This document shows, piece after piece, positions 33,702-63,410 of a stretch of DNA of 64,000 nt (position 1 is its first letter; each line of letters starts with the position of its first letter). The stretch is taken from IMG/VR virus record IMGVR_UViG_3300020171_000003, positions 16,533 to 80,532 of that record; one strand, 5' to 3'. A program made the position numbers and the translations under genes. Source of the DNA: a virus. Below the pieces are notes generated by a model. The model was not told the DNA's origin and made no database searches. It saw only the letters and a program-made list of their open reading frames with translations.

Positions 33702-34370
33702 ATGAGTCGAGGAGATGCTCCGCATGTTTATCATAATGACCAGGTAGATTACCAGGCATTATTTTTCAGTAACCCTGAAGCTTGTCTTGAAATTCCTATG
33801 ACAATGCAAAGAGGTTATGGTCTTATTAAAGTAGGGACAGTTGTTGGTGTTAACACCAGTGCCAGTAGCACAAATAAAGGAAAGTACATTCCGTATGATC
33901 CTCATGCTACTATTACTGGAGCAGAAGACGCTCCGGGCAGAGCTTATATAGTGTCTAATCATACATCCGGTGCTTATACTGTTATTGTTACTATGGAGGA
34001 CAGTTATAAGTTTATTGTTGGTGATGATCTGTTGCTACAAGGTTCTGGAGAGGCTGTTGAGAATGTGGGTGCAATTACCACTATTGATAGAACAACTTAC
34101 GGTCATATTGCAACTATTACTTTCACAGTTGCTTCTGGTAAGAATTACACTACGGCAAATTTTGCTTATGCATGTGTAGAAGGTTCTGAAACTGCTGTAG
34201 GTGTTTTAAAAGCGGCAAGAGATACTGGAGTAGGTACTGATTCAGTCGGTGCTCTGGGCAATCTGGTTATTGGTAATGCTCTGTTTTATACTGGAGTATT
34301 GCTCAATATGGATTCTAATGCAAGAACGGATGTTAGTGCGTCCTTAATTAGTCAATACACTAAAATTTAA
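33702..34370 (+). CDS. Head decoration protein
   Basis: GYGLIKVGTVVG...GKYIPY...AVGVL pattern; between protease and capsid genes. Confidence 0.7.
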   Translation: MSRGDAPHVYHNDQVDYQALFFSNPEACLEIPMTMQRGYGLIKVGTVVGVNTSASSTNKGKYIPYDPHATITGAEDAPGRAYIVSNHTSGAYTVIVTMEDSYKFIVGDDLLLQGSGEAVENVGAITTIDRTTYGHIATITFTVASGKNYTTANFAYACVEGSETAVGVLKAARDTGVGTDSVGALGNLVIGNALFYTGVLLNMDSNARTDVSASLISQYTKI

Positions 34371-34388
34371 GAAGGGAGGTGATTTAGT

Positions 34389-35630
34389 ATGCCTAGAGGT
34401 GCAAGTGATATACCTGATCTAAGATTGTCGAGGATTAATAAACTTATCCAAAAGTTTATGACACCCCCTTCAATGCTTTTTTCTAATTTGTTTGGTACGG
34501 ATAATGCTGATTCTGATACGATTAAATGGGAAAGTCAAATAGGAAATAGAGGTGTTACTCCTATGAAGGCTCCTGGTTCTCCTTCACAAGTTACCGCTCC
34601 GGTTGGTGTTTCTCAGAATGAAGCGGTTGCTGCTTTTTGGGGAGAAAAAGAGTATCATGACGAGGAATTTTTGAATAACCTTAGAGAGGAAGGAACTGCT
34701 TCTACTTATCTTTCCGCCAAAAGACGTATTGCAAGAGAGTTTAGAAGTATGCGTAATAGGTGTGATAGGCGTCTTGAACTTTTGTTTGCTCAGATGCTTA
34801 TTAATGGTGAAATTACTTATAGCGATAAAGGCGGGGTAAAACTATCTATTGATTATGCAATTCCTTCTGAAAATCAAGTTACTTTGGGTGCTAATTACTA
34901 TTGGACAAACGGGACTCAACGGAATATTGTTGGGGATATTATGGATGCTAAAATCGTAGTGTCTGACTCTTGTACTGGTATTATTGATCACATGGTGATT
35001 AATAGCAATACGCTTAAAGTGATGGCAATGGATTCTTCTATTCAGACTTTGCTTTCTAAATCTAATTTTGGGAACGGTGATCTTTTCGGAAAATCAGCCG
35101 GAGGTATTATTGGAGTTCGTCCTAGGGTTCTTGGCGAATTGCTTGGTATTCCTAATATTGTTGTTTATGATGAGAAGTATGTTATTGAGCAGACTTTGAC
35201 AGCCGCGGTTGCTGCGGGTGGGACAACGGTTTATGTTGGTAATGCCGCTGATTTTACCACTGGTACTGCTGTTCTTCATGATATTTCTGCTGGTACTTCT
35301 GAATCAGTTACAGTTTCAGCGGTTAGTACAGAAGCAGGTACTCTTACTATTGGAGCAACCACTGCTGCGTTTAGGGCTGGAGAAGATAAGATTACGCAAA
35401 CCCTACCGTTTATGCCTAATAACAAAACTCTGTTGATGGCTTCTACAGTAGAAGGTTCTAAGATTGCGGAATTTATTCAAGCTCCCTACGGGTTAAATAG
35501 AGCATATGGTCTTTTTGCTGATACAAAAGAAAACTGGGATCCTGATGGAATCTGGCTGCGTGTGCAGAATAAAGGTCTTCCCGTCTTGTATCATCGGGAT
35601 GCTATTTATTCATTAACATTTGCAGCCTAA
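34389..35630 (+). CDS. Major capsid protein (lambda E-like) with inserted beta domain
   Basis: RRLELLFAQML.NG.I, IDYAIP, VVYDEKY, WDPDGIWLRV..KGLPVL. Confidence 0.85.
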   Translation: MPRGASDIPDLRLSRINKLIQKFMTPPSMLFSNLFGTDNADSDTIKWESQIGNRGVTPMKAPGSPSQVTAPVGVSQNEAVAAFWGEKEYHDEEFLNNLREEGTASTYLSAKRRIAREFRSMRNRCDRRLELLFAQMLINGEITYSDKGGVKLSIDYAIPSENQVTLGANYYWTNGTQRNIVGDIMDAKIVVSDSCTGIIDHMVINSNTLKVMAMDSSIQTLLSKSNFGNGDLFGKSAGGIIGVRPRVLGELLGIPNIVVYDEKYVIEQTLTAAVAAGGTTVYVGNAADFTTGTAVLHDISAGTSESVTVSAVSTEAGTLTIGATTAAFRAGEDKITQTLPFMPNNKTLLMASTVEGSKIAEFIQAPYGLNRAYGLFADTKENWDPDGIWLRVQNKGLPVLYHRDAIYSLTFAA

Positions 35631-35645
35631 AAAGGAGGTGGATAG

Positions 35646-36119
35646 ATGAATAGACCAAATCCTTCAGTGGCTTTTGTGGAAGATGTTTCTTTATACAATG
35701 AACCTCCCTTGATGGCTGTTGTCTCAGGGGAGCTTCTTGTATCGAGAATGAATCATGTTTTAGGAACCGCACATTTTCCTGGTAGGGTTAGAAATATTTG
35801 GTTGTCTGTTGGTAATTGTGGAACAGACAAAACAGATGCTTTGAATATAAGCGGGGAAGTTTATATTAATGGATCAAGTTGTTTGACAACTACTCCAAAA
35901 ATTGCAGGTGTATCAGGAGAAGCAGGAGCACAAAAAACTACTAAAGTTATCGGTGATACTGCTATTGTCCAAGCGGTTGTGAACGCTTCTGCTAATTCAT
36001 ACAATGCAGGTGATATTTTTACTTGTAATTTCAAAATTCAGAGAACTACTCCGGAAGACGAAATTGAATCAATTGTTCTTGTGGTTGATCTTTTTCCGAA
36101 CACACCGGTATCAGTTTAA
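35646..36119 (+). CDS. Probable minor virion protein (3 SGE motifs)
   Basis: Beta-rich; directly after the capsid gene; strong RBS. Confidence 0.55.
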   Translation: MNRPNPSVAFVEDVSLYNEPPLMAVVSGELLVSRMNHVLGTAHFPGRVRNIWLSVGNCGTDKTDALNISGEVYINGSSCLTTTPKIAGVSGEAGAQKTTKVIGDTAIVQAVVNASANSYNAGDIFTCNFKIQRTTPEDEIESIVLVVDLFPNTPVSV

Positions 36120-36132
36120 AAGGAGGGCAATC

Positions 36133-36603: not shown

Positions 36604-36604
36604 A

Positions 36605-37058: not shown

Positions 37059-37676
37059 TTGTCCATTGCTTTAGACATAAAAGGTATTTTAAATGAGACC
37101 GGATACTCTTTGTCTATTATTAGAGATAAAGAAATCTCCGGAGAAAAGGGTGAATTTAAATCCAATTCTCAGATTACAAAACCTTTTGTAAGACAGCATT
37201 TTTTAGAAGGTGTTTTACCTTATGATACAAAGATTATTCCTGGTGATGTTGTTAAAACAGTAGTAAATTCTGAATTTTTTCTTGCAATGAATGTTACGGA
37301 TGTAGTTTTAGAAAATACCTGTATAAAGAAAGAAACTGTTTTTTATAGATGCAATGTGAGCGGTGAAGTTTTGCGAGTTAGCGGGGAAGAAAGAAACTTG
37401 CAGACATACGCTTTACAGCCCATATATCAATCAATAAGCAATTTATGTTATGCTGTGATTGCAGATACAGACGCAGGTACAGATATTTTGCAAGAAGAAA
37501 GAATTGGACAGATAGAAACGAATAAATTGTTTTTATTTATTCCGCATTCTGTAGGAATACGTCCTTTAGATATTTATATTCCTTATTCAGGAGAGTATTA
37601 TAAAGTTGAGTCTGTTGAAAAGTTTCGTTTTCCGGCTGTAGATTATTGTATTTTATCTGAAAATACCATAGACTAA
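37059..37676 (+). CDS. Probable head-closure protein (4 SGE motifs)
   Basis: Two repeated beta-barrel-like halves (IIPGDVV, IRPLDIY...YYKVESVE); position. Confidence 0.55.
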   Translation: MSIALDIKGILNETGYSLSIIRDKEISGEKGEFKSNSQITKPFVRQHFLEGVLPYDTKIIPGDVVKTVVNSEFFLAMNVTDVVLENTCIKKETVFYRCNVSGEVLRVSGEERNLQTYALQPIYQSISNLCYAVIADTDAGTDILQEERIGQIETNKLFLFIPHSVGIRPLDIYIPYSGEYYKVESVEKFRFPAVDYCILSENTID

Positions 37677-37695: not shown

Positions 37696-39762
37696 TTGAA
37701 AATGAAAAAAAAGATATTATTTGTAGGTGAAGCACCTTACGCATTTACTGGTAATTCTAATATGATGAATGCTTTACTTTCATCTGTTGATACTGATAAA
37801 TACGAGGTGTGTTGTTTTGGTTCAGGTGAGTCTCAAATAAAAGGAGATTCTATATTTCATTCTATGCCTTTTACTATTATCCCTTCTTTCAAACACGGTG
37901 ATTTTTGGGGTAATGTCCATTTGTTAGAAGTTATTAATTCAAGTTCTTTTGATGTATTATTTATGGTAGGAATAGATTTGTGGAGATATGCTTCTATTTT
38001 TCCTGAAATAGTGAAATTAAGACAAGTTAAAAAATTTAAATGGGTATTTCTTTTTCCTTACGATTTTGAAAATTACAGACGAGAATGGGCAGGTTGGATT
38101 AATGCAATAGATATTCCGTTAGTTTATTCCCAGTATGGAGAAGATCTTTTAAAAGAATATCATCCTAATATTACTTACTTTAGACCACCTTTGTTTGGCT
38201 CAGAGATTTTTACTTCTTTCCCTGTTGAGCAAAAGAAGATGGAAAAAAGTAAAATATTTTCTCAAGTAGCAAACAAGTTTATTTTTGGTTTTATTGGTCA
38301 GAATCAATTACGAAAAGATCCTTTAAGAGTTTTAGAAGCTTTCTCTTTGTTCCATAAAAAGAATCCAAATACTGCTTTATATCTTCATACAGAAAATCAA
38401 GGTCCAAAAGGGGTTTATAATATAAATCAAGCTGTGTTTGATCTTGATTTTCCTCCACATACAATTTTACTTAAAAAAGAAGGTCAAATTTACAGTCAAT
38501 TGGATATGATCCGAATTTATAATGCAATTGATTGTTTAGTGAATGCTTCTTTTCAAGAAGGTTTATCTTGGACAGTTTTAGAAGCAATGTTATCAGGATG
38601 TCCTGTTATTGCTTCGGATACAACCGCTCATCCTGAGTTATTATGGGATGCAGGCATTCTTGTTAAAAGAACGGATCGAGTTCTTTTACCAATAGGAGGT
38701 ATTACTGAAGGTGTTGTTTATGCTTCTACTCATGCGTGTAATACTGAAAAATTAGCGGAAGCAATGGCTACTATGTATTTAAATGATGAATATAGATTAG
38801 AATGTTCTGAACAAGGTTTACTTAGAGGAAAAGAATGGTTAGCAAGTGTTTCTAATGTGAATGATGTTTTAGATGTTGTTTCTATAGAGAAACCGGTTCA
38901 AAGAGTAGAAAGAATAAAAGGTGTTTTATTTGGTCAAAAAGCAAGTGCTGGTGACATTCTAATGACTACACAATGTTTGAAAGGACTGAAAGAACTTCAT
39001 CCGGATTTGCCTTTAAATTACATGACTTCTCAAAAATATATGAATATTTTAGAAGGGAATCCGTATATTGAAAATATTTATTCTTGGGATGATTCTTTGC
39101 CTGCTCGTTTTGATTTTTATTACAATCCACATGAGCAACGTATTTTACCAGGACATTGGGGTAGAAACTCAAATTCCCTATTGTCGGACTTTTATTGGAA
39201 AATTTTAAAAGTAGAACCTGGTTCGTTTTTTATTTATCCTCAAGAAATTCCTTCTGAATTTTCAGTTAAAATTCTTTCAGTAGATAGACCCATTGCTGTT
39301 GTTTATTCCGCAGGAGCAGATAGACCTTTTAGAGAATACCAATATTTTGGAATAGTATGCAATGAGATTAAAGATAGATATGTTACAATTCAATTAGGAG
39401 GACATGATGATTATCCTGCAGGAGCAGAAATTGATCTAAGAGGACAACTAACTTATAGACAAGAAGCTTGGGTAGTCCAGAGAGCTTCACTTGGTTTAAC
39501 TGTGGATACTTTTGGAGCACATTTAGTAGGTGCTTTAGGTGTTTCTCAAGTTACTTTACCAGGTTCAAGTAATAGCAGGGTAGTTCAACCAAAACAAACA
39601 GCAGGTGATCTTATTATATTAGATCCTGATTATGTAAAAGTGTGTCCTGGTTTAGGGCCTTGTTCTGCAAGTGTTAGAGATTGTCCTTTGCCTTGTATTG
39701 GTTCTATTTCTCCTAAAAAAATTATAGAGTCAATTGATTTTATAGAAAGGAAGGGTTTATGA
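37696..39762 (+). CDS. Two-domain glycosyltransferase (GT4-like + GT9 heptosyltransferase-like)
   Basis: GQNQLRKD, EGLSWTVLEAMLSGCPVIASD; then SAGDILMTT, NPYIE, IDLRGQLT, VDTFGAHLVGALG. Confidence 0.88.
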   Translation: MKMKKKILFVGEAPYAFTGNSNMMNALLSSVDTDKYEVCCFGSGESQIKGDSIFHSMPFTIIPSFKHGDFWGNVHLLEVINSSSFDVLFMVGIDLWRYASIFPEIVKLRQVKKFKWVFLFPYDFENYRREWAGWINAIDIPLVYSQYGEDLLKEYHPNITYFRPPLFGSEIFTSFPVEQKKMEKSKIFSQVANKFIFGFIGQNQLRKDPLRVLEAFSLFHKKNPNTALYLHTENQGPKGVYNINQAVFDLDFPPHTILLKKEGQIYSQLDMIRIYNAIDCLVNASFQEGLSWTVLEAMLSGCPVIASDTTAHPELLWDAGILVKRTDRVLLPIGGITEGVVYASTHACNTEKLAEAMATMYLNDEYRLECSEQGLLRGKEWLASVSNVNDVLDVVSIEKPVQRVERIKGVLFGQKASAGDILMTTQCLKGLKELHPDLPLNYMTSQKYMNILEGNPYIENIYSWDDSLPARFDFYYNPHEQRILPGHWGRNSNSLLSDFYWKILKVEPGSFFIYPQEIPSEFSVKILSVDRPIAVVYSAGADRPFREYQYFGIVCNEIKDRYVTIQLGGHDDYPAGAEIDLRGQLTYRQEAWVVQRASLGLTVDTFGAHLVGALGVSQVTLPGSSNSRVVQPKQTAGDLIILDPDYVKVCPGLGPCSASVRDCPLPCIGSISPKKIIESIDFIERKGL

Positions 39763-40454
39763 GACCTTTAGTAATTGCTTCAAATATGTTAATGGAAGCG
39801 AACAATGATTTAGAAGGTTGGATTGAGAATATGCAACAAGTTACTGATTTGGGCATTCTTGTTGTGGACGGCGGTTCTACTGACGGAACAAAAGAGATTT
39901 TAGAGGCTGCTGGAGTTATTGTTATTACAGATAATATAATTCAAAGAGAAGGATACGGACCTGCAAGAAATCAATTAAGAAAACTTTGTAAAGAGAACTT
40001 TCCAGAAGCTCATTGGATGGCTTATTTTGATGCTGATGAAAGAATCAATGAAAAAGACATTCATTTTTTGAAATGGGTTCAAAACTATTTAAATGAAAGC
40101 GTTTCTGATGTTGTTGCTTTTCCAAGAATTGATTGGTTTGATAAAGAGAAAACTAAATCAAATAATGATATACGGATAGTTCCGGATTTTCAAGCAAGAA
40201 TGACAAGATTAAATGCTCCTTTGGAATATATAAGAATTTGTCATGAACAGATTGTAACAACTAAAGGCATTTTTTGTAATATAGATGTTTGTCCGCCTAT
40301 TCATCATTTTCATAGGTCAGCAAGTAAAGATAAGCGTGATTACATTGGTAAGGTCTGTGCTATGCTTCATTCTAAAGATCCATATGGACATACTTATCCG
40401 AAACACCATAAAGAAGATTATTATTTTGATTTGTATCAGAAAGAAGGTTTATGA
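39759..40454 (+). CDS. GT2 (GT-A) glycosyltransferase
   Basis: VVDGGSTDGTKEI, ARN, FDADE, PDFQAR, HEQI. Confidence 0.88.
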   Translation: MRPLVIASNMLMEANNDLEGWIENMQQVTDLGILVVDGGSTDGTKEILEAAGVIVITDNIIQREGYGPARNQLRKLCKENFPEAHWMAYFDADERINEKDIHFLKWVQNYLNESVSDVVAFPRIDWFDKEKTKSNNDIRIVPDFQARMTRLNAPLEYIRICHEQIVTTKGIFCNIDVCPPIHHFHRSASKDKRDYIGKVCAMLHSKDPYGHTYPKHHKEDYYFDLYQKEGL

Positions 40455-41083
40455 AGGAAGAAATTTTTATTTTTGGAAATTCTATGTGCTGTACTCCTTC
40501 TAAGGAATCTTATCTTGATTTACTGAAACAAGATTATGATGTTAACGGTATGTGGATGAGAGGAATGACAATTTGGCATGTTAATAAATATCTAAGAAAT
40601 ATTGTTAGAGGAGATAATTCTTGGATAATTATTAATGTAGGAATAGTTGAGGCTGTTACTAGAAAATCCTATCATGTTTTATACTATTGGTTAAATGAAT
40701 TACTTTCACATGATGCTGATGAACTGTTTAAAGAAACTATTTTACCATACTTGCAAAATATTTCTTTAAGTATGGATAAAGAAGATGTTTCTTTTTGGAA
40801 TATAATTCCATCCGGTTGTTTTTTACGGTTGTTTGAACTTTGTTTAAAAAAATTAGAAAGTTATAGAATCATTGTGGTAGGACCTGCTTATCCAAAACCT
40901 TTAGAAAATACTTCAAGATTTTCTATTTGTATTAATTATGCTTCTATTCTAAAAAATTTAGAAAAAATTTATTTTATTGATACTTGGAACAAGTGTAAAG
41001 AGGATTCTATTGATGATGCTCATTTGAATGCAAATGGACATAAAAAGATTTACAATCTCATAAAGGAGAAAATTAATGGATAA
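40451..41083 (+). CDS. SGNH/GDSL-fold esterase or acyltransferase
   Basis: IFGNS, NVGIVE, DDAHLNANGHKKI. Confidence 0.7.
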   Translation: MKEEIFIFGNSMCCTPSKESYLDLLKQDYDVNGMWMRGMTIWHVNKYLRNIVRGDNSWIIINVGIVEAVTRKSYHVLYYWLNELLSHDADELFKETILPYLQNISLSMDKEDVSFWNIIPSGCFLRLFELCLKKLESYRIIVVGPAYPKPLENTSRFSICINYASILKNLEKIYFIDTWNKCKEDSIDDAHLNANGHKKIYNLIKEKING

Positions 41084-42026
41084 AAGAAATGTGTTTACCT
41101 CTACAGGAATAAAATTATTACAACATCCGGAAGTCATACATTTTTTACAGAGAGGACGATTTATTCCTGTTTCATTACAAGTTGCCCCTACTTCAAGATG
41201 TAATTTGAATTGTTCCTTTTGTTCTAACAGCAAAAGGAGTAAACATGAAGATTTGGATAGAAATGAATTGTTTTATTTTATTGATGTTTTACAAAGAACA
41301 GGACTTAAAACAGTAGAAATCACTGGTGGCGGTGATCCTACAATGTATCATAGCATTAATGAGTTGATAGAGTGTATTTATGAATCTGATCTGGAAGTCG
41401 GATTAATTTCAAATGGTATTTTACTTAAAGAGAAAATTAGTCCTAGAAATTTAAATTCATTAACTTGGTTAAGAGTCTCTTTAAACTCGTTGGAGTATTG
41501 TGACGATATTGATTTACCTAAAATTAATGGTACACTGGGATTCAGTTTTGTAATTCATTCTAAAAATATAAATAACATATTAAAATATGGTAAAAGAATA
41601 AGAAAATTGGTGGATAAGTACCATGCTTCTTATGTCCGCATTGTTCCGGATTGTTTACCTGGAGAAGATGAAAAAAGATTGAATGTAATCTGTGAAGCTT
41701 TTGTTCGTGAATTTGGGGAACCGTTTTTCTTTCAAGAGAAGATTTTTAGGAAACCAGATAACTGTTGGTGGGGATATTTAAAACCGTTTCTTCTTCATGA
41801 TAAGTTTGTTTATCCTTGTAGTTCTGTTGTTCTTAATTCAGGATCTGAAGGAGTATTTCATGAAAAATTTAGAGTAGCTACTATGGATGATTTTCTTTTA
41901 AATTATAGACAAGGTTTTAAAGTAAATTCTTTTCCTACAGCTAATTGTGATAGGTGTGTTTTTGCAAATCAGAATGATATGGTAGATTCAATTTTGAATC
42001 CTAATAAAATGAGGAATTTTTTATAA
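41076..42026 (+). CDS. Radical SAM enzyme with C-terminal Cys-rich (SPASM/twitch-like) domain
   Basis: CNLNCSFC, ITGGGDP, ISNG, VYPC, CDRC. Confidence 0.9.
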   Translation: MDKRNVFTSTGIKLLQHPEVIHFLQRGRFIPVSLQVAPTSRCNLNCSFCSNSKRSKHEDLDRNELFYFIDVLQRTGLKTVEITGGGDPTMYHSINELIECIYESDLEVGLISNGILLKEKISPRNLNSLTWLRVSLNSLEYCDDIDLPKINGTLGFSFVIHSKNINNILKYGKRIRKLVDKYHASYVRIVPDCLPGEDEKRLNVICEAFVREFGEPFFFQEKIFRKPDNCWWGYLKPFLLHDKFVYPCSSVVLNSGSEGVFHEKFRVATMDDFLLNYRQGFKVNSFPTANCDRCVFANQNDMVDSILNPNKMRNFL

Positions 42027-42556
42027 TGAGAAAATTACAAATAGGTCCAGGAAAAGCTTATTTCCCCGGATGGGACAATGTGGATATATTTTCAAATGTT
42101 CGGGCAGATCTTTATGCCTCTGCTCTTGCTTTACCTTACGAACCTGAAACTTTTGATTTGTTATATAGTTCACATGTCCTTGAGCATATAAATAGAAACA
42201 TGACAGTAGCAGCATTGAGTCATTGGCATTCGTTGTTACGCAAAGGAGGGGTGCTTCGTTTAGCGGTTCCCAGTTTCTCTGCTGTTGTTGAGTACTATAA
42301 TAAAGAAAAAGATTTGGTTCCTTTACTTGGTCTTCTATTTGGAGGACAAAGGTTTATTTTAGATTCTCATTGTTGTGTCTTTGATGAAATGTTTTTAACC
42401 AAGTTATTAAAACAAGTAGGATTTACTGAAATAAGAAAATGGGATTGGAGAAAGACGGAACATGCTCAATTTGATGATTATTCCCAAGCGTATCTTCCCC
42501 ATATGGATAAAGAAGAAGGTCTTCTAATGTCTTTGAATATGGAGGCCGTAAAATGA
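42026..42556 (+). CDS. Class I SAM-dependent methyltransferase
   Basis: LQIGPG, SSHVLEH, LRKGGVLRLAVP. Confidence 0.88.
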   Translation: MRKLQIGPGKAYFPGWDNVDIFSNVRADLYASALALPYEPETFDLLYSSHVLEHINRNMTVAALSHWHSLLRKGGVLRLAVPSFSAVVEYYNKEKDLVPLLGLLFGGQRFILDSHCCVFDEMFLTKLLKQVGFTEIRKWDWRKTEHAQFDDYSQAYLPHMDKEEGLLMSLNMEAVK

Positions 42557-43830
42557 AAAATATTTATATTTATGATCCAGAACCTTTTCTTCATGATTAT
42601 GTTTCTCATAAATTTTTAACTCCTTTATTGAAGTATGGTACTACTAAAGGAATGACTATTAAAAAGATAAACTCTTTTGATGAAGCGAAAAACGGAATAG
42701 TTTTATCTTTCAGTGGACATTTAAAATCAGATGTTATTAAGAAATTAAAAGAGGATAATAACTTTATTGGTTCTTTTGATATTACAGATAGCACATGGTT
42801 AAGTGAAGCTTATAGATGGGATCATGAAGCTTGTTCTTCTTTAGATGCTATTTTTAAATTTAGCGGAATTCCAAAGTATCAATATTCACAAGAACTCCAG
42901 ATAGGTGAAGATTTAACTTATTATAAACATGATTATCCTTACATGGAAGATAAAGAATGGCAGTATTTTTGTAACTTGAAAGAAAACAATAAAATTATAC
43001 CTATGCCTCATATTCCGTGGCAGCAATATAATATTGTTCCTATTCACTATTTAAAGAAAAGAGACGTTCTTGTAAGGGGAGGAAATCATTATTTACGTTT
43101 TCATTTGTTTCTTAATTTTTTAAAATTTGGATTAACAAGTAAATGGTCCGGTTTCTTTATGGCTGATTATCATAAATCTAAAATGGATGCAGATCATAGA
43201 TTTTGTGATAATTGTTGTGAAATATGGAACAGAAATAATAATAGATTTCCTTATGAAGAATACTTAAATATTCCTATTTATGAGAAATGTAATAATGGTC
43301 ATATTCCTTGGCCTATTACGGATGAAACCACTTTTCAGAATAAGAACAATCATAGATGGAATAATAAATGTATTCCTATTTATTATTGGTTAACAGAAAC
43401 TTTTGTTAATAAACACGGATATGTGGACATGAAGAAAGTAGAGGATTGTTTCTCTATTTTTTATCTTCATCCGGATGATTTAGGGAATGTTTTAGCTCAC
43501 CATTTATTTACAGCAGATTATAAATGGATTTATAGCATTGATATTCCTCCAAGATTTTGGGAATGTAGTGCGGCGAAAACAGTAAGCTTAATGCCAAGAT
43601 GGACAAGAAATCAAACTCATTTTCCAAATTTGATTGAGAATGAGCATTATATTACTTTTGATGAGGCTTTTGAAGACCTTGAATTAGTAATGGACACAAA
43701 ACAAGAACAATATGACCATATAACAAATAATTGTTATAATTTATATCAAAAATGGATTAAAGGTGAAGAATACGGAATATCAATTAATTTGATGAATCAT
43801 ATATTTAATCAGATTGAAGAAAGGATATAA
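42553..43830 (+). CDS. Probable GT-B glycosyltransferase (Glyco_trans_1_2-like C-terminus)
   Basis: DVLVRGG, PRFWECSAAKT, LIENEHYI, ITNNCYNLY. Confidence 0.6.
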   Translation: MKNIYIYDPEPFLHDYVSHKFLTPLLKYGTTKGMTIKKINSFDEAKNGIVLSFSGHLKSDVIKKLKEDNNFIGSFDITDSTWLSEAYRWDHEACSSLDAIFKFSGIPKYQYSQELQIGEDLTYYKHDYPYMEDKEWQYFCNLKENNKIIPMPHIPWQQYNIVPIHYLKKRDVLVRGGNHYLRFHLFLNFLKFGLTSKWSGFFMADYHKSKMDADHRFCDNCCEIWNRNNNRFPYEEYLNIPIYEKCNNGHIPWPITDETTFQNKNNHRWNNKCIPIYYWLTETFVNKHGYVDMKKVEDCFSIFYLHPDDLGNVLAHHLFTADYKWIYSIDIPPRFWECSAAKTVSLMPRWTRNQTHFPNLIENEHYITFDEAFEDLELVMDTKQEQYDHITNNCYNLYQKWIKGEEYGISINLMNHIFNQIEERI

Positions 43831-44430
43831 ATGCATTACGATATTGATTACTTTGAAAACGGATTAGAAACAGGTAAAAGTTGCTATCAGAATTACCGTT
43901 GGTTACCTGAAGAAACTCTTTCCTTAGCTATGCGTTTCATTGATCATTTTAATTTAACTCCTGAGGATACTATCTTGGATTACGGATGTTCCAAAGGATA
44001 TTTAGTGAAAGCTTTTCGTTTACTTCATAGAAAAGCTTTTGGTTATGATATAAGTCCTTATGCTTTATCTTGTGCTCCTCCGGAAGTAAAAGATTTTTGT
44101 TTTGATTATCTACCAAGAAGACCTTTTAATTTTTGCATTGCTAAAGATGTTTTTGAACATATTTCTTTACCAGATTTGCAAAGACTTTTAACAGGAAATT
44201 TAAATACAAATACTCTCTTTGCAATTATTCCTCTTGGTGATAATAAAATTTATAGATCTTCAATAAATAATCTTGATCCCTCTCACATTGTCTGTTATAG
44301 TGAGGTAGAATGGATGAAATTTTTCGGAAAATGTGGTTGGATTGTGAAAGATTTTACTTTTAGTTTTCCAGGATTAAAAGAACATCATCCTGAAAGATCA
44401 CACGGTTTTTTTACTTTGGTGGAAGTATGA
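43831..44430 (+). CDS. Class I SAM-dependent methyltransferase
   Basis: ILDYGCSKG, GYDISPYA, KDVFEHI. Confidence 0.9.
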   Translation: MHYDIDYFENGLETGKSCYQNYRWLPEETLSLAMRFIDHFNLTPEDTILDYGCSKGYLVKAFRLLHRKAFGYDISPYALSCAPPEVKDFCFDYLPRRPFNFCIAKDVFEHISLPDLQRLLTGNLNTNTLFAIIPLGDNKIYRSSINNLDPSHIVCYSEVEWMKFFGKCGWIVKDFTFSFPGLKEHHPERSHGFFTLVEV

Positions 44431-46631: not shown

Positions 46632-47225
46632 ATGGCTATTACTGGACCTGTTACAAAAAATACAACCACTCCTGTTATAGGATTGGCGCAAATTCGTTTA
46701 GGATCGTCTGGAACCAATATTGCAAGTGTTGCTCCTGTTTTGACTGCTAGCAATTCAATTGGTTCTGTGGCAAGTACTAAATTTGTATCTGCTATTGACT
46801 TTTTCAGATTGGAGTCTGGTTATCCTTTAATGGAGGATGCTGCTTATCCGATTCGTGAGAAAGCTTCAATGGAAGTTGCTTTTAAAGAAATTACCCCGGC
46901 TAACATTGCTTATGCTCTTGGTTTAGATGGTGCTTCTGGAGAATATTCTGCGGCTCATTCTGGTGAAATTTCTTTAGGAACTGTCAAAACTCCAGCTTTT
47001 ATTCGTTTGGAGTCTGTTTATACTTATCCTGATGGAAGTAATAAAATGCAGATCATTTTCCCCAGGGCTCAGATTTTGTCTAATGTTGAGTTAGATCATA
47101 ATGCAGAGGAGCCTTTGGCTACTCCTATGATGATTGAAGCAAAACGGGCAGATTCTAATGTTGATGGTGGGAATGCTGTTTGGGATAATAAACCTTATGG
47201 ACGAATTTTTTGGTCCGTTTCATAA
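46632..47225 (+). CDS. Major tail tube protein (2 SGE motifs)
   Basis: Beta-rich 197 aa; FKEITPANIAYALG, IIFPRAQI; strong RBS; precedes chaperones and tape measure. Confidence 0.75.
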   Translation: MAITGPVTKNTTTPVIGLAQIRLGSSGTNIASVAPVLTASNSIGSVASTKFVSAIDFFRLESGYPLMEDAAYPIREKASMEVAFKEITPANIAYALGLDGASGEYSAAHSGEISLGTVKTPAFIRLESVYTYPDGSNKMQIIFPRAQILSNVELDHNAEEPLATPMMIEAKRADSNVDGGNAVWDNKPYGRIFWSVS

Positions 47226-54149: not shown

Positions 54150-55019
54150 ATGAAAGAACTTGATAATAATATTATTACAGAAATTGATGCTTCACAAAAG
54201 ACGCCTATTATTTTAGTAGAGCAATATTTAGATGGAGCTACTTTAAGATGGGCTTTAGCAAAAGAGAATATTATTTTTGGCGGATTCACTTATTTTGCCA
54301 AAACTTTTACAGTAGATGATGTGGATTTTTCTTTTGAAGGTCAATTGGATAAAGTTTCTTTAAATTTTGATAATATAGATTCTGCTTTTGATGCTTATAT
54401 AGAGGCTTTTGATTTTGAAAGCAGACCTATGTTTATAAAAAGAATTTATCTTTCTGGTGAATTAGAAGAAATACCATCTAATCCTGAAATGTATAATGAA
54501 GTATTTTATGGAGAGATGGAACAACCTACAGATTCAGATGGTAGAAATATTAATATTACTGCTGTTTCTGGATATTCTTTGGATAAAGGAATGTTAAATC
54601 AGTATTACGGATCTTTTTGTCAAAGAAAGTTTGGGGATAGACTTTGTACTGTAAATTTAGCGGATGAGAATTACTATTTTAAAAAAGGTATAGTAAGTGG
54701 CGAAGGAACAACTTCTAAATTTAAAACAAATTCTTTGCTTGAAGCAGATAATTTTTGGAAACATGGTAATGTAAAACTTAATATAGATGGGTCTATTTAT
54801 AATAGAAAAGTAAAATCTTTTTCCAGTAATGGAGCATCCGGGGAAGTTACTTTGGATATTGGAATTATTGAAACAATAGACCTTGGTTCTACTTTTGAAA
54901 TAAAGAAAGGTTGTGATTTTACATGGGAAACTTGTTCTGGAAATAATACATGGGGCCCCTCAGGTGAAAATACTTTAAATTTCTTTGGATTTATCCATAT
55001 AGGTATTAATAAGGAATAA
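54150..55019 (+). CDS. Baseplate hub/tail-tip protein (BR0599/gpL-like, 4 SGE motifs)
   Basis: CQRKFGDRLC, KGCDFTWETC, NFFGF. Confidence 0.8.
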   Translation: MKELDNNIITEIDASQKTPIILVEQYLDGATLRWALAKENIIFGGFTYFAKTFTVDDVDFSFEGQLDKVSLNFDNIDSAFDAYIEAFDFESRPMFIKRIYLSGELEEIPSNPEMYNEVFYGEMEQPTDSDGRNINITAVSGYSLDKGMLNQYYGSFCQRKFGDRLCTVNLADENYYFKKGIVSGEGTTSKFKTNSLLEADNFWKHGNVKLNIDGSIYNRKVKSFSSNGASGEVTLDIGIIETIDLGSTFEIKKGCDFTWETCSGNNTWGPSGENTLNFFGFIHIGINKE

Positions 55020-55401: not shown

Positions 55402-58400
55402 ATGAGTTTACTCGGAAAAATAGGAGCACTGGTTGGAGCAGTTGTAGGTGTAGCTTTAGTTGCCACAGGAGTAGGTGCGCCTTTAGGCGGTGCTTTACTT
55501 GGAGCTGCAATAGGAATACCTACCGCATTAGGGGCGGCTCTTACTTATGGAGCAATAGGTTTTGTAGCAGGAACTGTTTTGGATTATGCTTTAGGAGCAG
55601 TAGTTCCAGATATTCCTTCACCTACTTATGATGGAACTTTTCCTGTACCTATATTAGAATCTGGAGCAATTATTTCAGAAGCATACGGAGGTCCTCTTTA
55701 TATAGCTGGAAATATTTTGAGAATGAATGACCCAGATGCAGAAGATAAATTAAAAATAATTGTAGGACATTGTTTAGGACCGGTAGAAGAATTTTTAGGA
55801 ACTTATGTTAATAAAAAAGAATGGAATACTTTAGATAAAGTTCATCATATGGTTCATAGTTATGGAGAAGAATATCAGGTTCCTATTAAAATAACAACTT
55901 CTATAGCGATTGATCAACCTTACTCTAGTAAAACTTTATTTGGCATGTTGACCCTTGTAGTTAATGCATATAAAAGTTTATCTGTTGTTGATAATTTTTT
56001 TACTGATAAAATATGTTCTTTTAGAGGATTAGCCCATAGTGCTTACCTATTTGATAAAAGTTCTTCGGATATAGGAACAAATACTCCGTCTGTGGTAGAA
56101 GTGATAAAAGGAAGAAGATTAATTCCCATTGCTTTGAATGGTGTAGAAGGAGAATTAGAATGGAGTAGAAATATTGGAGATATTCTTTGGGATTATTATA
56201 GAAGGTATGATGTAGCCAGTATAATTGATGAACAACAAATAGGATTTTGGGCTTTTAATGAATCCATAGGAAGTATTGCTGTAGACAGTAGTAAATATGA
56301 TAATAATGGTACTTTACATAATTTTACAGGCACATATTGGGTAGAAGGTCAATTCGGAAACGGTTTACAATTTAACGGTTCAAATTCTTATGTTGATTGT
56401 GGAAATTTAATTCCTTTATCTTTAATAGGTAAGCAGAGTTTTTCTTTATCTTTTATGATTAGTTTTGATTCTGTTACAGGTATTATTTGGCAAAAATATG
56501 AAGATTCTTCCAATTATATTAAAGTTTTTATAAGCGGAGGATATCTAAAAATTGAAGCAAAAAGTTTAGGGTCTTATATTATTAATGAATCTTTTAATTT
56601 TTATCCAATAGCAAATATTGAATATAGAATAGTTCTTTGTTTTGATAAAACAAATCTTGTTTGTTCCTTATATGTGAATAAATTAAAAGATACAATAGAA
56701 GTGGGTTGGAATACTGATACAGATATTTCTAACACTGGTAATGTATTTTGGGGGAGTACTTCTTCCTCTTTTGCTGGTGTTTTAGATCAAGCTCGTATTT
56801 ATAATAAAGTTTTGGATTTTAGAGAAGTTTTTGCTTGTTATGAAGATGGTATTTTAGATGAAAATTCTTTTCGATCTTTAAAAGAGTATTCGGATGAATT
56901 TTTAGAAGATTCAGAAGGTTCTCCGATGAGACCTATTGGCCCAAGTAATTATACAGTAATAGCTTCGAGTCAATTCGGTCAAACTATAAATAGAAATAAT
57001 ATTGCTTCTATTGCTACAAAATTATTTGCAATTATAGGAGAACCAAGGAAAAGTCTTATTGTTACAGGAACTTCTCCTGTAACACATACAAGTGATTATG
57101 GTATATATTCTCCTATTTATGCTTTCGATGTTACAAAAAGTCTTACTTCTGCACCAGAAAATAACTCTTGGAGAAGCGGGAATTTTAGTTATTTTATAGC
57201 TTCAAGAATAAGTTGTGATTTAAGTTTGCCGGTAAAATTAAGAAAAGTAGAGATTATACCAGAAGCAGATATTGGTTTAAAAACTTTTTATGTTCAAGGT
57301 AGCAATAGTGTTTTAGATTTTTTACAATATGAATATAATGATATTGGAACAACTTGGACAGTATTAGGGTCATTACAAACAGCCGTTCCTTATGATTCAA
57401 CTAATCCGGTTCAGAAATTTTATATAAATTCAGATGTTGCTTATAGATACTATTCTTTAAAAATTATGTCTTCTTATGGTATTACTACAGGAATTAGAGA
57501 CATTTGTTTTTGGGGAATACATCCTAGGTTTCCTTTTGATCATGTTTTTGATAATAATATTAGAAAAAATGATGTTAAGAAATTATTAAACTCTTGTTTT
57601 TTTGGAAGAACTTTTAGAACTCAAGGAAAAATAAAAGTAGGATGGGAAGGAAACAAAGAACCAGACGGATTAGGGAGTTTACAAGATAAGAGCGTAAAAC
57701 ATATTTTTACTTTAAATAATGTTATTTCTTTAACTAGGAAAAAACATACTAGGTATAATAAAATAAAAATTAATTATATAAATTTTACAGAAGAAGGTAA
57801 AAAAGATTATATAGAAGATTCTGATGAAATTGATATTGAAAAAAGAGGTGAACAATTATTTGAAGAATCTTGTGATTTTATTTACCATCAGCAAATAGCA
57901 AGAGCCCGAGCAAGAAGGCATTTGAAAAAATCAATGTATTGTGATTGGGATTGTGTAATTGAGTCAACTGATGAAGCTAATAGAGTAGAATTATTTGATG
58001 TTATTTCCGTAATTTGGTCTAAATTTGGTTGGAACGAAAAACAATTTATTGTAATGAAGAAGACAGAAGATTGGTTAGGAAGAGTTACTTTTTATTGTGA
58101 AGCTTATTATTCTGGAATTTATGATGATGAAGAAACACCTGTTCCAGAATCTTATTTTTCTAAACTTTCTAAAGTACTTGGAACTCCGTCTCCAGTAACC
58201 AATTTACAAGCTTTGGATGATTCTTATTTTGATGAACAAGGTAGTTATATTACTCAGGTAGAGATTTCTTATACTCCTCCGAATAATAGAAATTATTTTT
58301 CTCATATAAAATATCAATACGGTTTCAAACTTACAGGAGAAAATTTAATTACTTCAGGAGAATCTCCTGTGGTTTATATGCAACCATCATACTATGCAAA

Positions 58401-59811
58401 TATAAATGTAGGTGATATTCTTTTTGTTTCTGGAGAAGAAGTTACTGTAGGAGAAAAATTAGGAGATTCTTCTTCTGTTCTTGTTGGTAAATCTTTACTT
58501 TTATCTGGAGAAGTTTTTTCTTCTGATTATGTTTCTTTTTTTGACTATCCAGGAAAAGATACAGGTGTAGGTTATTTTACTTTAGACGGAAGAAATATGA
58601 ATTTGGAAATAGGAGATGATCTTTATGTAAAAGCTATTTCGGTAAATACATTTGGAATAGAATCTGGATTATTTTCTCCTTATACTTCTTTATATAAAGG
58701 AGAAGTTACTTTATTAGGATTACAAGAAGCTTTAGCCTCAGGTAAAAAAAGAATACTTTTACCTGACGGTATTTATAGCGGAGAATTTACTTTACCAGAT
58801 CAAGATGTTATAATAGAAGGTGTTTCTAAATCCGGTGTTATTTTTACTAATATGCCTAGCCAAAATTTATTTATTCTCCATAATTTAAATAGTAATTATG
58901 CTTTTAAAAATTTTACTTTACAAAGTAATGTAGATGGTACTTATCCTAAATTATTTAATATTACCGGTGATACTGAGGCTCAAAATTTAGCTAATATATC
59001 TTTTGATAATCTTTCTTTTATTGGAAAAGCTTCCAGAAGAGACAGAGCTATTTATGGATATAAAGGCAAAGGAAATATTGCTATTACAAATTGTCATTCC
59101 ATAAGTGGAGAGATTAATTTTGTTGATTATACTACTTCCAAATTTAATATAAGTAAAAATATAATGGAAAGTAACATATTTTATGCTTTCCAAATTTATT
59201 GTGATACGATTAATATGGAAGAAAATCAATGTTTAAATTATACAGGTGTAGGTATGCTTATTTATCCTACAAATACTGCTAATGTAAATAAAAATTATTT
59301 ATATACAAGAACAGGTTGTGCTTCTATTACAGGTATTAATATTTTTACTACCACAGGTGACATTAAAGCTGTTCAAAATAAAATTGATTTGGATACTTCT
59401 AGTTATTCAAATTCATCTACTAATACAGGTTTAAAAATTAGTAATGATTCTACCGGTATTTCTTTTATTTCAGATAATAATATAAATTTAAAAGCTCATA
59501 GCAATAGTGCTACTAAAGGTCTTTATTTTTATTCTTCTACTGGCATTGGTGGTTCTGTTATAGGAAATACTGTTGTTGTTAACAATATAAATACTCCTTC
59601 AGATAATAATTTGGGTATAGAACTTTTAAGTAATAATGCAACTATTACTGGAAATAGTATTAATTTGGTAAATAATTCAGCTAAAGATATTGGTATTTCT
59701 TTACATGCTGCTTACGGTTATAATAAAGGTACAGATAATATTACTTACAATGTCGGCACTTCAATTTTGGATGCGGGAACAAGTAATGATGTTTTAGCAA
59801 AGGATGTTTAA
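55402..59811 (+). CDS. Central tail tip protein (gpJ-like) with LamG, discoidin-like and beta-helix domains (5 SGE motifs)
   Basis: FRGLA, WSRNIG, WAFNE..G..AVDSS..NNGTL LamG, VELFDVISV, Asn-rich C-terminal beta-helix. Confidence 0.82.
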   Translation: MSLLGKIGALVGAVVGVALVATGVGAPLGGALLGAAIGIPTALGAALTYGAIGFVAGTVLDYALGAVVPDIPSPTYDGTFPVPILESGAIISEAYGGPLYIAGNILRMNDPDAEDKLKIIVGHCLGPVEEFLGTYVNKKEWNTLDKVHHMVHSYGEEYQVPIKITTSIAIDQPYSSKTLFGMLTLVVNAYKSLSVVDNFFTDKICSFRGLAHSAYLFDKSSSDIGTNTPSVVEVIKGRRLIPIALNGVEGELEWSRNIGDILWDYYRRYDVASIIDEQQIGFWAFNESIGSIAVDSSKYDNNGTLHNFTGTYWVEGQFGNGLQFNGSNSYVDCGNLIPLSLIGKQSFSLSFMISFDSVTGIIWQKYEDSSNYIKVFISGGYLKIEAKSLGSYIINESFNFYPIANIEYRIVLCFDKTNLVCSLYVNKLKDTIEVGWNTDTDISNTGNVFWGSTSSSFAGVLDQARIYNKVLDFREVFACYEDGILDENSFRSLKEYSDEFLEDSEGSPMRPIGPSNYTVIASSQFGQTINRNNIASIATKLFAIIGEPRKSLIVTGTSPVTHTSDYGIYSPIYAFDVTKSLTSAPENNSWRSGNFSYFIASRISCDLSLPVKLRKVEIIPEADIGLKTFYVQGSNSVLDFLQYEYNDIGTTWTVLGSLQTAVPYDSTNPVQKFYINSDVAYRYYSLKIMSSYGITTGIRDICFWGIHPRFPFDHVFDNNIRKNDVKKLLNSCFFGRTFRTQGKIKVGWEGNKEPDGLGSLQDKSVKHIFTLNNVISLTRKKHTRYNKIKINYINFTEEGKKDYIEDSDEIDIEKRGEQLFEESCDFIYHQQIARARARRHLKKSMYCDWDCVIESTDEANRVELFDVISVIWSKFGWNEKQFIVMKKTEDWLGRVTFYCEAYYSGIYDDEETPVPESYFSKLSKVLGTPSPVTNLQALDDSYFDEQGSYITQVEISYTPPNNRNYFSHIKYQYGFKLTGENLITSGESPVVYMQPSYYANINVGDILFVSGEEVTVGEKLGDSSSVLVGKSLLLSGEVFSSDYVSFFDYPGKDTGVGYFTLDGRNMNLEIGDDLYVKAISVNTFGIESGLFSPYTSLYKGEVTLLGLQEALASGKKRILLPDGIYSGEFTLPDQDVIIEGVSKSGVIFTNMPSQNLFILHNLNSNYAFKNFTLQSNVDGTYPKLFNITGDTEAQNLANISFDNLSFIGKASRRDRAIYGYKGKGNIAITNCHSISGEINFVDYTTSKFNISKNIMESNIFYAFQIYCDTINMEENQCLNYTGVGMLIYPTNTANVNKNYLYTRTGCASITGINIFTTTGDIKAVQNKIDLDTSSYSNSSTNTGLKISNDSTGISFISDNNINLKAHSNSATKGLYFYSSTGIGGSVIGNTVVVNNINTPSDNNLGIELLSNNATITGNSINLVNNSAKDIGISLHAAYGYNKGTDNITYNVGTSILDAGTSNDVLAKDV

Positions 59812-60216: not shown

Positions 60217-60672
60217 ATGGCTGATTTTTCGTATCAACCAAATGTAGTTCATTCTTTTCCTGCTATACCTAATATTGATGTTACTCAAGGACAGAAGTAT
60301 ATGCAGAGTTCTTATAAATGGTCTGATAGATTTTTAAGAAAATATGAACTTAGATTTGGATATGTGAATAGGGCAAAAAGAAATTTATTAAGAAGTCATT
60401 TTGAAGGTCAATTTGGTCCATATAAAGCTTTTAATTGGATAAATATTCCTTCTTATGTTTTTGGTATTATAGAAGGTTCTCAAGTAAATTATGATGAAGG
60501 ATCAGAAGGACAAGGTTATTATGAAGAAACACCTGAAGTCGGTGGAAATGTTTTTGCTGTAAGAATAACTTTTATTTATAGTTCTTCTGCTTCATTTTTT
60601 ACAATTGATTCGGAAGATGATTTGGTTATTCTAGATGAATCAGGAATACCTATTTATTCGGAGGAGTATTAA
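60217..60672 (+). CDS. Dit-like protein, copy 2
   Basis: MADFSYQPNVVH vs MADFSYEPNYVH; shared KRNLLRSHFEGQFGP and GYYEETPEVGGNVF. Confidence 0.7.
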   Translation: MADFSYQPNVVHSFPAIPNIDVTQGQKYMQSSYKWSDRFLRKYELRFGYVNRAKRNLLRSHFEGQFGPYKAFNWINIPSYVFGIIEGSQVNYDEGSEGQGYYEETPEVGGNVFAVRITFIYSSSASFFTIDSEDDLVILDESGIPIYSEEY

Positions 60673-60673
60673 A

Positions 60674-62743: not shown

Positions 62744-63080
62744 CTTCAACCAGCGGAGAGGACTGATGACCCCGAACCAATTAAAGAAAAAGCTCCGAAA
62801 GGTTTTTGAGCAAATTGTGAAGAAGCAAATTGATGACTTACTAAACCCAAAGAATCACAAATAAAACCGGAGGCCAGCGAATGCCTGAATGTTTACCCAA
62901 CCATTGGTTCAAACTAAGAAGCGGAGTTGAAACAGTATAAAAGAAAAATTAAAATAAAAAAGGTTGACAGAATAAAAAAAAGAGTTTATAAAAAATTAAA
63001 ACAATCAATCTCCTTAAAGAGAACCTTAAAACCATACCCGAGCGAATGCTCATAACTTTTAATTATTGGGAGGTTCTATA

Positions 63081-63410
63081 ATGAGTGAGATTGGAAATTA
63101 CCTTCGTCTTTTAGTCAATGGAGATAAAACAGCTAAAATTACTGTTTTAAAAGTCGTGACAGCTCCGCAAGAATTTACTACTAGTTTTAACACTTCTTTA
63201 AATTATCGAAAAAAACTTTTTGCTTATAATAATTCACCTTCTGCTTCCGGAGAACTTTATATGGGTTTTTCAGGTGATCTTTCTCCTGCTTCTGGATATC
63301 CTATTCCTTCTGGAGCTGAAATAAAAATTCCTGTAGCTCAAAATATTTCTATATTCTTTTGCAGTACTTCTGGTGAAGTCGGAGATATGAGGATTTTTGA
63401 AATTGCATAA
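63081..63410 (+). CDS. Small beta-rich probable virion protein (2 SGE motifs)
   Basis: GGAGG RBS; RKKLFAYNN..LYMG...SGYPIPSG pattern. Confidence 0.55.
   Translation: MSEIGNYLRLLVNGDKTAKITVLKVVTAPQEFTTSFNTSLNYRKKLFAYNNSPSASGELYMGFSGDLSPASGYPIPSGAEIKIPVAQNISIFFCSTSGEVGDMRIFEIA

Follow-up and report, generated by a model that had tools for sequence, protein, structure and literature searches.

The DNA analysed here, called the window, is a 64,000-nucleotide stretch (bases 16533-80532) of the 80,532-bp phage record IMGVR_UViG_3300020171_000003 in IMG/VR, for which direct terminal repeats are on record, and its GC content is about 33%. This work concerns the tripeptide Ser-Gly-Glu (SGE), which recurs in virion proteins encoded in the window, and a fused glycosyltransferase (GT) gene located directly after the gene of a neck protein. 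The late operon has a lambda-like order: terminase (28698), portal (30637), S49 prohead protease of the lambda gpC type (32252; PF01343, phrog_53), a weakly gpD-like protein of 222 aa and the major capsid protein (34389; match to phrog_29). It continues with proteins of 157, 149 and 205 aa, a seven-gene sugar cluster and neck/tail-completion genes (phrog_26), followed by the tail tube, a chaperone pair, the tape measure (48027), a GC-rich spike, the hub, a tail tip of 1469 aa, a second GC-rich spike and small genes. The phage family comprises hundreds of IMG/VR contigs. A tblastn search of the capsid protein, the 205-aa neck protein (stopper) and P0020, an SGE-free relative of the stopper, against 50,697 phage records gave no match, and no cultured relative was found.

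The original prediction, made from the sequence of this window, had counted 21 SGE in seven structural proteins where roughly one would be expected. The recount was identical: 21 occurrences in 2653 aa, versus 1.1 expected from the composition of each protein. In the whole window, 24 SGE were found versus 5.8 by composition (Poisson 1.4e-8), and none of 300 per-protein shuffles reached 24, the maximum being 16. The late region alone holds 22 SGE, versus about 3.9 expected by composition and 6.6-8.9 under a first-order dipeptide model. Among all tripeptides of the window SGE has rank 4, and ranks 1-3 all come from one Cys-Gln-Asp repeat protein (23017-23655). The recount also agreed that SGE is absent from the terminase, the portal, the S49 protease, the major capsid protein, the tape measure and the two GC-rich spikes, and that only three SGE lie elsewhere in the window, in the genes at 19899 and 23777 and in the GT gene at 37696.

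The tripeptide enrichment, computed per protein as had been proposed, is strong for SGE and does not extend to its near variants. In the late proteins, the residue before Gly-Glu is Ser 22 times, Ala four times, Gly three times, Asn twice, Thr once and never Asp; the residue after Ser-Gly is Glu 22 times, Lys five times, Asp twice and never Gln; and between Ser and Glu, Gly occurs 22 times and any other residue at most six times. No enrichment was found for TGE, AGE, SGD or SAE in these proteins (AGE 4 versus 4.6 expected), nor for GGE (3 versus 5.1). The flanks are mostly hydrophobic, with Val, Ile, Ala or Tyr before the tripeptide and Ile, Val, Leu or Tyr after it, considering 107 sites from four genomes. 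A generic beta-turn preference was tried as an explanation and rejected, because Thr, Ala and Asn at position 1 and Asp and Gln at position 3 are not enriched. Three of the tail-tip sites (985, 1010 and 1035) follow a 25-aa period and two further pairs of sites lie 7-8 aa apart. Since some sites repeat one another, the number of independent SGE events is lower than 21.

The neck protein of 205 aa (37059..37676, + strand, as for all the late genes described below) carries four SGE, at residues 27, 101, 108 and 177 (nt 37137-37145, 37359-37367, 37380-37388 and 37587-37595). Its AlphaFold2 (AF2) model, with a predicted local distance difference test score (pLDDT) of 92.7, shows two barrels of the stopper/head-closure type in tandem. 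Both segments, residues 1-100 and residues 96-205, match stopper proteins, with Z-scores of 9-10 that are little above the quoted background; the matches include those of Chi (8vhx_F), T1 (9l0e_A), Douge (8zdj_M), SPP1 (gp16, 7z4w_1), lambda and other phages. The label "head closure" given earlier to this gene is reasonable. The protein contains the stopper fold twice, through an internal duplication, most solved stoppers being single barrels of about 110 aa. In the model, sites 27 and 101 are placed at the start or end of strands beside loops and site 177 in a loop.

Directly after the major capsid gene, a protein of 157 aa (35646..36119) carries SGE at residues 27, 69 and 90. Its AF2 model (pLDDT 89.2) is a jelly-roll sandwich with weak fold matches of the tumour necrosis factor (TNF), C1q and satellite tobacco mosaic virus (STMV) coat type, with site 27 at a strand end beside a loop and site 90 in a loop. 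Over 40 sequences of this family, conservation reaches at least 90% at S27, G28 and S90-G91-E92, and site 69 is variable. Given that its gene lies directly after the capsid gene, a capsid decoration or a fibre base would be a guess for the function of this protein. Another carrier is the tail tube (197 aa, 46632..47225), assigned by the position of its gene ahead of those for the chaperone pair and the tape measure, which has SGE at residues 102 and 110, the latter within a conserved H-S-G-E. The tail hub (289 aa, 54150..55019), which is similar to lambda gpL and to the hub of gene transfer agents (GTA), carries four (residues 102, 183, 230 and 271); it matches the tail assembly family phrog_778 (6e-18) and PF09356 (Phage_BR0599) over the cut-off, and shows a weak match to a baseplate-hub N-domain. 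The tail-tip or central fibre protein (1469 aa, 55402..59811), placed by its position after the hub gene and with a weak Laminin_G_3 match below the cut-off, carries five (residues 985, 1010, 1035, 1126 and 1235). A protein of 114 aa encoded after the second spike (63066..63410) has SGE at residues 61 and 102 and no family match.

The seventh protein had been included in the system by the original prediction as a head decoration. This candidate (222 aa, 33702..34370) shows a weak match to lambda gpD (PF02924, 27.4 bits versus a cut-off of 29.1) and to phrog_49, and has a single SGE at residue 115. The site is not conserved: five homologues lack it, and the family holds in total 3 SGE in 43 proteins. 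Hence this SGE is probably due to chance and would lie outside the system, which leaves that part of the prediction without support.

Selection at the protein level, as proposed earlier, was borne out by comparison of homologues. SGE sites, the four of the stopper included, persist between homologues that are 27-40% identical. In the locus L002, whose orthologues are 37-38% identical, SGE is kept at 4/4 sites of the 205-aa protein, 2/3 of the 157-aa protein and 1/2 of the tube. Each of the four core stopper sites uses both TCN and AGY codons for Ser across homologues. In the window, the codon diversity is as had been claimed (Ser as TCA, TCC, TCT, AGC or AGT, and Gly as any of its four codons), and across the homologues the six Ser, four Gly and both Glu codons are used. 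A repeat or motif at the DNA level was rejected, as codons are saturated at every site. An exhaustive HMMER search returned 261 relatives of the 205-aa protein, from which the 150 best, mutually less than 50% identical, were taken. Their SGE count is bimodal, about 70 of them having three to five and about 65 having none.

The gene located directly after the stopper gene (37696..39762) encodes a fused glycosyltransferase of 688 aa, with a GT4-type module at about residues 170-400 and a GT9 heptosyltransferase-type module at about residues 410-650. Residues 187-338 of the protein, in the GT4 module, score 46.2 bits for PF13692 (cut-off 27) and 41.8 bits for PF00534 (cut-off 26.4). As to the GT9 module, the L002 orthologue scores 26.8 bits for PF01075 against a cut-off of 22, and PF01075 is a precomputed match in most of 120 members; in the window protein itself this module stays below the cut-off (TIGR02201, heptosyltransferase III, 2e-10, 40 bits versus 170). 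A profile of 22 orthologues was compared with the PDB, where the GT4 part matched B736L of the chlorovirus PBCV-1 (3oy2, 2e-12) and the C-terminal part matched the GT9 structure 3tov (1.7e-8), WaaF (1psw, 6e-7) and WaaC (2gt1, 7e-7). The C-terminus also carries a cluster of four cysteines, C650, C656, C663 and C667, with the spacing C-x5-C-x6-C-x3-C (CPGLGPCSASVRDCPLPC, window 39643-39699), each of them invariant or at least 90% conserved among the 22 aligned orthologues. This cluster may be a metal finger. In public data, the fused enzyme is represented by more than 160 clusters with proteins of 670-730 aa, on contigs of up to about 92 kb, and its JGI name is 'ADP-heptose:LPS heptosyltransferase/glycosyltransferase', LPS being lipopolysaccharide.

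The presence of this gene is coupled to SGE. Scans of IMG/VR with capsid profiles yielded about 150 related loci with their flanks, and a scan with the GT profile gave 189 relatives, of which 80 were kept. In 48 loci with the gene directly after the stopper gene, the stopper has one to six SGE (median 4), versus none or one in the eight loci without it. Considering distinct stoppers after the second scan, there are 152 SGE in 42 proteins with the gene versus 6 in 45 of a nested clade without it, so SGE is not equally conserved in relatives that lack the gene. Each core stopper site is SGE in 28-38 of 43 homologues from loci with the GT in the neck, compared with 0-3 of 44 in the clade that lacks the gene. 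Conversely, when the scan started from the GT, the fused enzyme adjoined an SGE-rich stopper in nearly every locus. All loci found to encode the 157-aa protein are neck-GT loci, and its 29 sequences together hold 60 SGE; the major capsid protein of the same clade has 3 SGE in 41 proteins.

In the capsid tree, the 51 rows without the gene group into a single clade (support 100) that lies within a grade with the gene. Two loci lie outside: L005, which is without the gene, and L006, whose contig ends soon after the stopper gene. Since the clade without the gene is nested in a grade that has it, the simplest history is that the gene was lost in a lineage which once had it and that the stopper SGE sites were lost along with it. 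The residues that changed point to the serine. At stopper site 27, Gly-Glu is present in both clades, as SGE in 28/43 homologues with the gene and as TGE in 29/44 without it, while sites 101 and 108 are occupied by unrelated residues in the clade without the gene. In the tube, HSGE is found in 8/8 distinct sequences with the gene; in the nested clade the H-x-G stays and the Ser and Glu drift (HLGS, HVGS, HTGR, HAGA and others), SGE being found in 3/24. On account of the exchange of SGE for TGE at site 27 and of the freeing of Ser and Glu in the tube motif, Ser is the residue coupled to the gene. Moreover, new SGE have arisen at 10 further stopper columns, and all the loci concerned either have the gene or are of undetermined status.

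The coupling is also seen in whole genomes. Those with the gene have SGE in excess (observed/expected 24/7.2, 20/6.9, 49/9.5, where SGE is the top tripeptide, and 14/5.5; ranks 1-14), versus 10/7.2, 8/7.4, 4/7.6, 12/7.2 and 4/6.9 in five nested-clade genomes without it (ranks 381 to about 6200). In the genome G002, four tail fibres have 7, 9, 7 and 11 SGE and no detectable similarity to window proteins. In G012, whose contig contains no capsid homologue, the GT cluster is located outside the neck region; the 14 SGE of this genome, versus 5.6 expected, are mostly in tail-region proteins, six of them in one protein of 243 aa. Replication of the coupling comes in this way from many unrelated proteins at once. 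G011, G014 and G015 show no SGE excess, but they are fragments without virion modules and are uninformative either way. Two of the fibres of G002 (910 and 872 aa; G002:C1:22700-28056, locus L159) are built of His-rich repeats of 42-51 aa with the pattern YDGH-x-x-SGEIHFTE-x-SIDH, each repeat holding one SGE. Judging by their His content, these repeats may bind metal.

The nested clade bears a different mark. Runs of at least six Ser or Thr residues, mostly as C-terminal poly-Thr/Ser tails, are present there in 45/46 capsid proteins, 43/45 stoppers and 23/24 tubes, versus 0/41, 0/42 and 0/7, respectively, in the neck-GT clade. The adaptor, the terminator-like protein, the portal and others have neither SGE nor the Ser/Thr mark in either clade. 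Stopper and tube thus bear a mark in both clades, SGE in one and Ser/Thr tails in the other, and the set of enzymes differs accordingly. The mark of the capsid shifts from the 157-aa protein in the SGE clade to a tail on the major capsid protein itself. Among complete or near-complete nested-clade genomes, GT4-like genes of 380-430 aa are present in 4/5 and GT2 genes in 5/5. In G004 (G004:C1:25143-51171, L164-L165), a GT2, two GT4-like genes and a homologue of the radical SAM (S-adenosylmethionine) gene at window position 41076 lie among genes of giant Ser/Thr-rich tail proteins, and G006 and G009 have a cluster like that of G004 without the fused neck GT. Therefore, the relatives described earlier as lacking a GT cluster do lack the fused neck GT and are not free of other glycosyltransferases. 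In two loci of this clade (L109 and L110), an open reading frame (ORF) of 729 aa occupies the slot of the fused GT after the stopper and has no similarity to window proteins.

The other genes of the window's sugar cluster lie behind the fused GT. They encode a GT2-family glycosyltransferase (231 aa, 39759..40454; PF00535 and PF13704 over the cut-off), which is present only in some neck-GT loci; a protein of 210 aa (40451..41083) with no Pfam or NCBIfam match and with homologues in a small number of related clusters; and a radical SAM enzyme (316 aa, 41076..42026; PF04055 over the cut-off), also a variable member. The NCBIfam matches of this last protein (MoaA, viperin-like and others) are all far below the cut-offs, and its homologue in the different GT cluster of G004 was found at 1e-16. 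It probably tailors the sugar. Then follow a SAM methyltransferase (176 aa, 42026..42556; PF13489 and PF08241 over the cut-off), a protein of 425 aa (42553..43830) with no Pfam or NCBIfam match, and a SAM methyltransferase-like protein (199 aa, 43831..44430) for which the Pfam methyltransferase families are just under their cut-offs. The ESM Atlas neighbours of the 425-aa protein are of the CgeB/Glyco_trans_1_2 and Glycos_transf_1 families (feature score 0.94-0.95, TM 0.54-0.58), and a further GT-B glycosyltransferase is possible, as a lead from model similarity. Pfam and NCBIfam scans of the cluster proteins revealed no heptose-synthesis genes.

The fused GT4+GT9 gene is the sole cluster gene that is constant in SGE-rich loci, and the smallest clusters (L024-L030) consist of the fused GT and one methyltransferase of the 176-aa type only. 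The link between SGE and the neck GT cluster that had been proposed is thus one with the fused gene, the GT2, the radical SAM enzyme and the methyltransferases being variable. In G011, G014 and G015 (loci L278-L290), a replication module in common with the window is followed downstream by the GT cluster, outside the neck. From this position, compared with the neck position elsewhere, it follows that the cluster is mobile within the phage family.

Outside the sugar cluster, other features of the window deserve mention. The two spike genes (52029-54077 and 60635-62743) have a GC content of about 0.40-0.42 versus 0.28-0.32 around them, contain no SGE and have no family match. They look recently acquired, and recent acquisition would fit their lack of SGE. 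The Cys-Gln-Asp repeat protein (23017-23655, + strand; 212 aa) has a middle third built of triplets in tandem, about 30 of them, with the pattern C-Q/R/L-D/N/G (CQDCQDCQNCQGCQDCRNC...), so that every third residue there is Cys. On the - strand, a GTP cyclohydrolase I (FolE; PF01227, 1.8e-51) and a QueE-like radical SAM protein are encoded at 4068-4667 and 5320-5979, respectively. These two genes fit a 7-deazaguanine DNA-modification module. The putative GT-B and DpdA genes that adjoin them gave no Pfam match.

Taking these results together, SGE is probably a Ser-specific acceptor sequon for O-glycosylation, read by the fused GT4+GT9 enzyme. The original prediction had ascribed this role to the GTs of the neck genes, and the excess, the conservation and the coupling to the fused GT lend it support of a comparative kind. 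The fused GT would work in the host cytoplasm with nucleotide sugars. Its recognition site would be Ser-Gly-Glu, usually with hydrophobic flanks and bordering a beta strand, in virion proteins that are folded or in assembly, and the enzyme would put the first sugar on the Ser. The second module and the variable neighbours (GT2, the possible GT-B, the radical SAM enzyme and the methyltransferases) could then extend or tailor the glycan. The carriers would be the stopper, the 157-aa jelly-roll protein, the tube, the hub and the tail tip, and tail fibres in relatives. The likeness to GT9 suggests heptose as the sugar, and the resulting coat may serve shielding, stability or adhesion.

Several observations weigh against this proposal. 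Some sites lie inside predicted beta strands (site 108 of the stopper and site 69 of the 157-aa protein), and part of the excess is found in tandem repeats, those of 25 aa in the tail tip and of 48 aa in the G002 fibres. The presence or absence of the gene changes only twice on the tree, so that there are few independent events and the correlation on the tree is thin. The coupling also has exceptions: the loci L010 and L225 have the gene yet one SGE in the stopper, and the tube HSGE is also found in the outgroup L005, which is without the gene. In L219, the stopper is SGE-free though the fused GT follows it, and a 186-aa protein encoded after the capsid gene has four (L219:8030-8590, 9339-9944); the SGE load can therefore move between carriers. 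Finally, the sequence comparisons did not connect the fused GT to any proven protein O-glycosyltransferase; the solved structures closest to it among the PDB profile matches are LPS heptosyltransferases and the chlorovirus GT4.

SGE could instead be a lineage-specific structural or assembly motif that stays unmodified, such as a beta-bulge, a turn or a contact with a partner, its link with the GT gene being due to shared ancestry. The two changes of the gene on the tree would agree with this, and so would the mostly hydrophobic flanks, the several sites in predicted strands, the HSGE of L005 and the retention in both clades of Gly-Glu at stopper site 27 and of H-x-G in the tube. However, a motif specific to a fold would not turn up in six or more unrelated folds and also in the non-homologous proteins of G002 and G012, and it would not be specific at three positions with Thr, Asp and Ala excluded. 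Nor would it vanish from all sites at once in the nested clade, where the folds are unchanged, while new sites elsewhere arise almost only where the gene is present. This explanation is considered unlikely. A reaction other than glycosylation is quite improbable as well, be it proteolysis after Glu, phosphorylation of Ser in S-x-E, or methylation or another change of Glu by enzymes of the cluster. Prohead proteases of the phiKZ type follow the rule S/A/G-x-E, and S-x-E is a phosphorylation rule; SGE resembles both. Nevertheless, AGE and GGE show no enrichment (4 and 3 versus 4.6 and 5.1) and S-x-E is enriched for Gly in the middle only. The protease of this phage is of the S49 lambda gpC type (PF01343, phrog_53), and four cuts in a stopper of 205 aa, or cuts in the tube, the hub and the tip, would destroy these proteins. 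Phosphorylation would call for a kinase, and no kinase domain was found in the cluster with Pfam and NCBIfam. A modification of Glu would find candidate enzymes in the methyltransferases and the radical SAM enzyme, all the more as the smallest clusters (L024-L030) retain one methyltransferase beside the fused GT, but many SGE-rich loci lack the radical SAM enzyme and the second methyltransferase. Prohead cleavage of the phiKZ/T4 type (x-x-Glu) was rejected as a candidate system in view of the S49 protease, the sites in tube, hub, tip and fibres, and the lack of AGE and GGE enrichment.

It is also conceivable that the target of the neck GT cluster is, for instance, DNA, a glycan of the host surface or a layer resembling a capsule, and that SGE is unrelated or indirectly linked to the cluster. 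Glucosylation of DNA by phage GT-B enzymes is well known, as with the alpha- and beta-glucosyltransferases of T4, and the position of the cluster after the replication module, outside the neck, in G011, G014 and G015 could be taken in the same sense. Against such a target stands the separate 7-deazaguanine module of this genome (FolE and the QueE-like radical SAM protein), and the coupling between SGE and the gene would be left unexplained. In G012, moreover, the cluster is outside the neck and yet the 14 SGE are concentrated in tail-region proteins. This possibility is regarded as very improbable, and O-glycosylation at SGE by the fused enzyme is retained as the preferred interpretation.

The kind of system, phage virion glycosylation, would not be new in itself. 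Full-text literature searches revealed no tailed phage with a defined acceptor motif, and the chances are slightly in favour of this being the first O-glycosylation sequon to be defined in a tailed phage: SGE read on folded virion proteins by a fused enzyme, possibly heptose-first as in the bacterial autotransporter heptosyltransferases (BAHT), with co-evolution of enzyme and acceptor and a nested clade that swapped to poly-Ser/Thr tails and other GTs. Sugar coats on a few mycobacteriophages blunt antibody binding, and the site choice of the enzymes is not defined. If the proposal is true, it provides a rule that predicts glycosylated virions from sequence alone, a portable pair of tag and enzyme for glyco-engineering in the bacterial cytoplasm, and a natural case of an enzyme and its acceptor changing together. 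As the family is large and uncultured, the trait would be unstudied and apparently common among environmental phages.

Concerning known systems, two reports, both citing Freeman et al. (2023), describe mycobacteriophage glycosyltransferases that modify phage capsids and tail tubes (PMC10877033, PMC12363180). The phage described here likewise has GTs encoded in its genome, and its tube has a conserved motif at which modification is predicted; the nested clade, in which capsid, stopper and tube end in poly-Ser/Thr tails, looks like a system of the mycobacteriophage type. In that 2023 study (Cell Host Microbe), on Che8, Corndog and Myrna, Freeman et al. reportedly described Ser/Thr-rich terminal extensions as O-glycosylation sites. 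On the other hand, SGE is a discrete tripeptide inside folded domains with no terminal tract (the [ST] runs being absent from all capsid proteins, stoppers and tubes of its clade), the major capsid protein is left unmarked, the enzyme is a fused GT4+GT9 in the neck module, and the hosts and the phage family are unrelated.

The chlorovirus PBCV-1 also glycosylates its capsid with virus-encoded glycosyltransferases, using methylated sugars and non-canonical acceptor motifs (PMC9614988). Its own glycosylation machinery is cytoplasmic, as the one proposed for this phage would be, and its B736L is the best solved relative of the GT4 module. PBCV-1 is nevertheless a giant virus of eukaryotes and has no SGE motif. 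Its glycans are N-linked to Asn of the major capsid protein. The xylosyltransferase of proteoglycans, a eukaryotic Golgi enzyme, accepts Ser-Gly with nearby acidic residues and prefers Ser over Thr. The resemblance to this acceptor that had been pointed out earlier is real for the motif and goes no further, the enzyme belonging to an unrelated family of which no member was found in the cluster by Pfam and NCBIfam scans. The general O-glycosylation of Bacteroidota (D-S/T-A/I/L/V/M/T) was rejected as a model, as position -1 is mostly Val, Ile, Ala or Tyr in the 107 sites and the carriers are assembled in the cytoplasm.

The closest mechanistic parallel is found in the BAHT, represented by TibC/TibA and AAH/AIDA-I. 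TibC is a soluble, WaaC-like GT-B enzyme that puts heptose on Ser and not on Thr. It does so at numerous positions of a surface protein rich in beta structure, such as Ser313 in 'QNSGG'; it carries an iron finger of four cysteines, C339, C342, C358 and C370, has a beta-barrel at its N-terminus and forms a dodecameric ring (PMC4358343). TibC was not among the best 60 of the 85 PDB matches (E up to 10) of the fused-GT family profile. The phage system differs in the extra GT4 module fused to its enzyme and in its predicted substrates, which are virion proteins of many folds. Its second module is of the heptosyltransferase kind, and a preference for Ser would fit the 22 SGE versus one TGE in the late proteins and the exchange of SGE for TGE at stopper site 27, a pattern read from sequence; the phage enzyme also has a conserved C-terminal cluster of four cysteines, with a spacing different from that of TibC.

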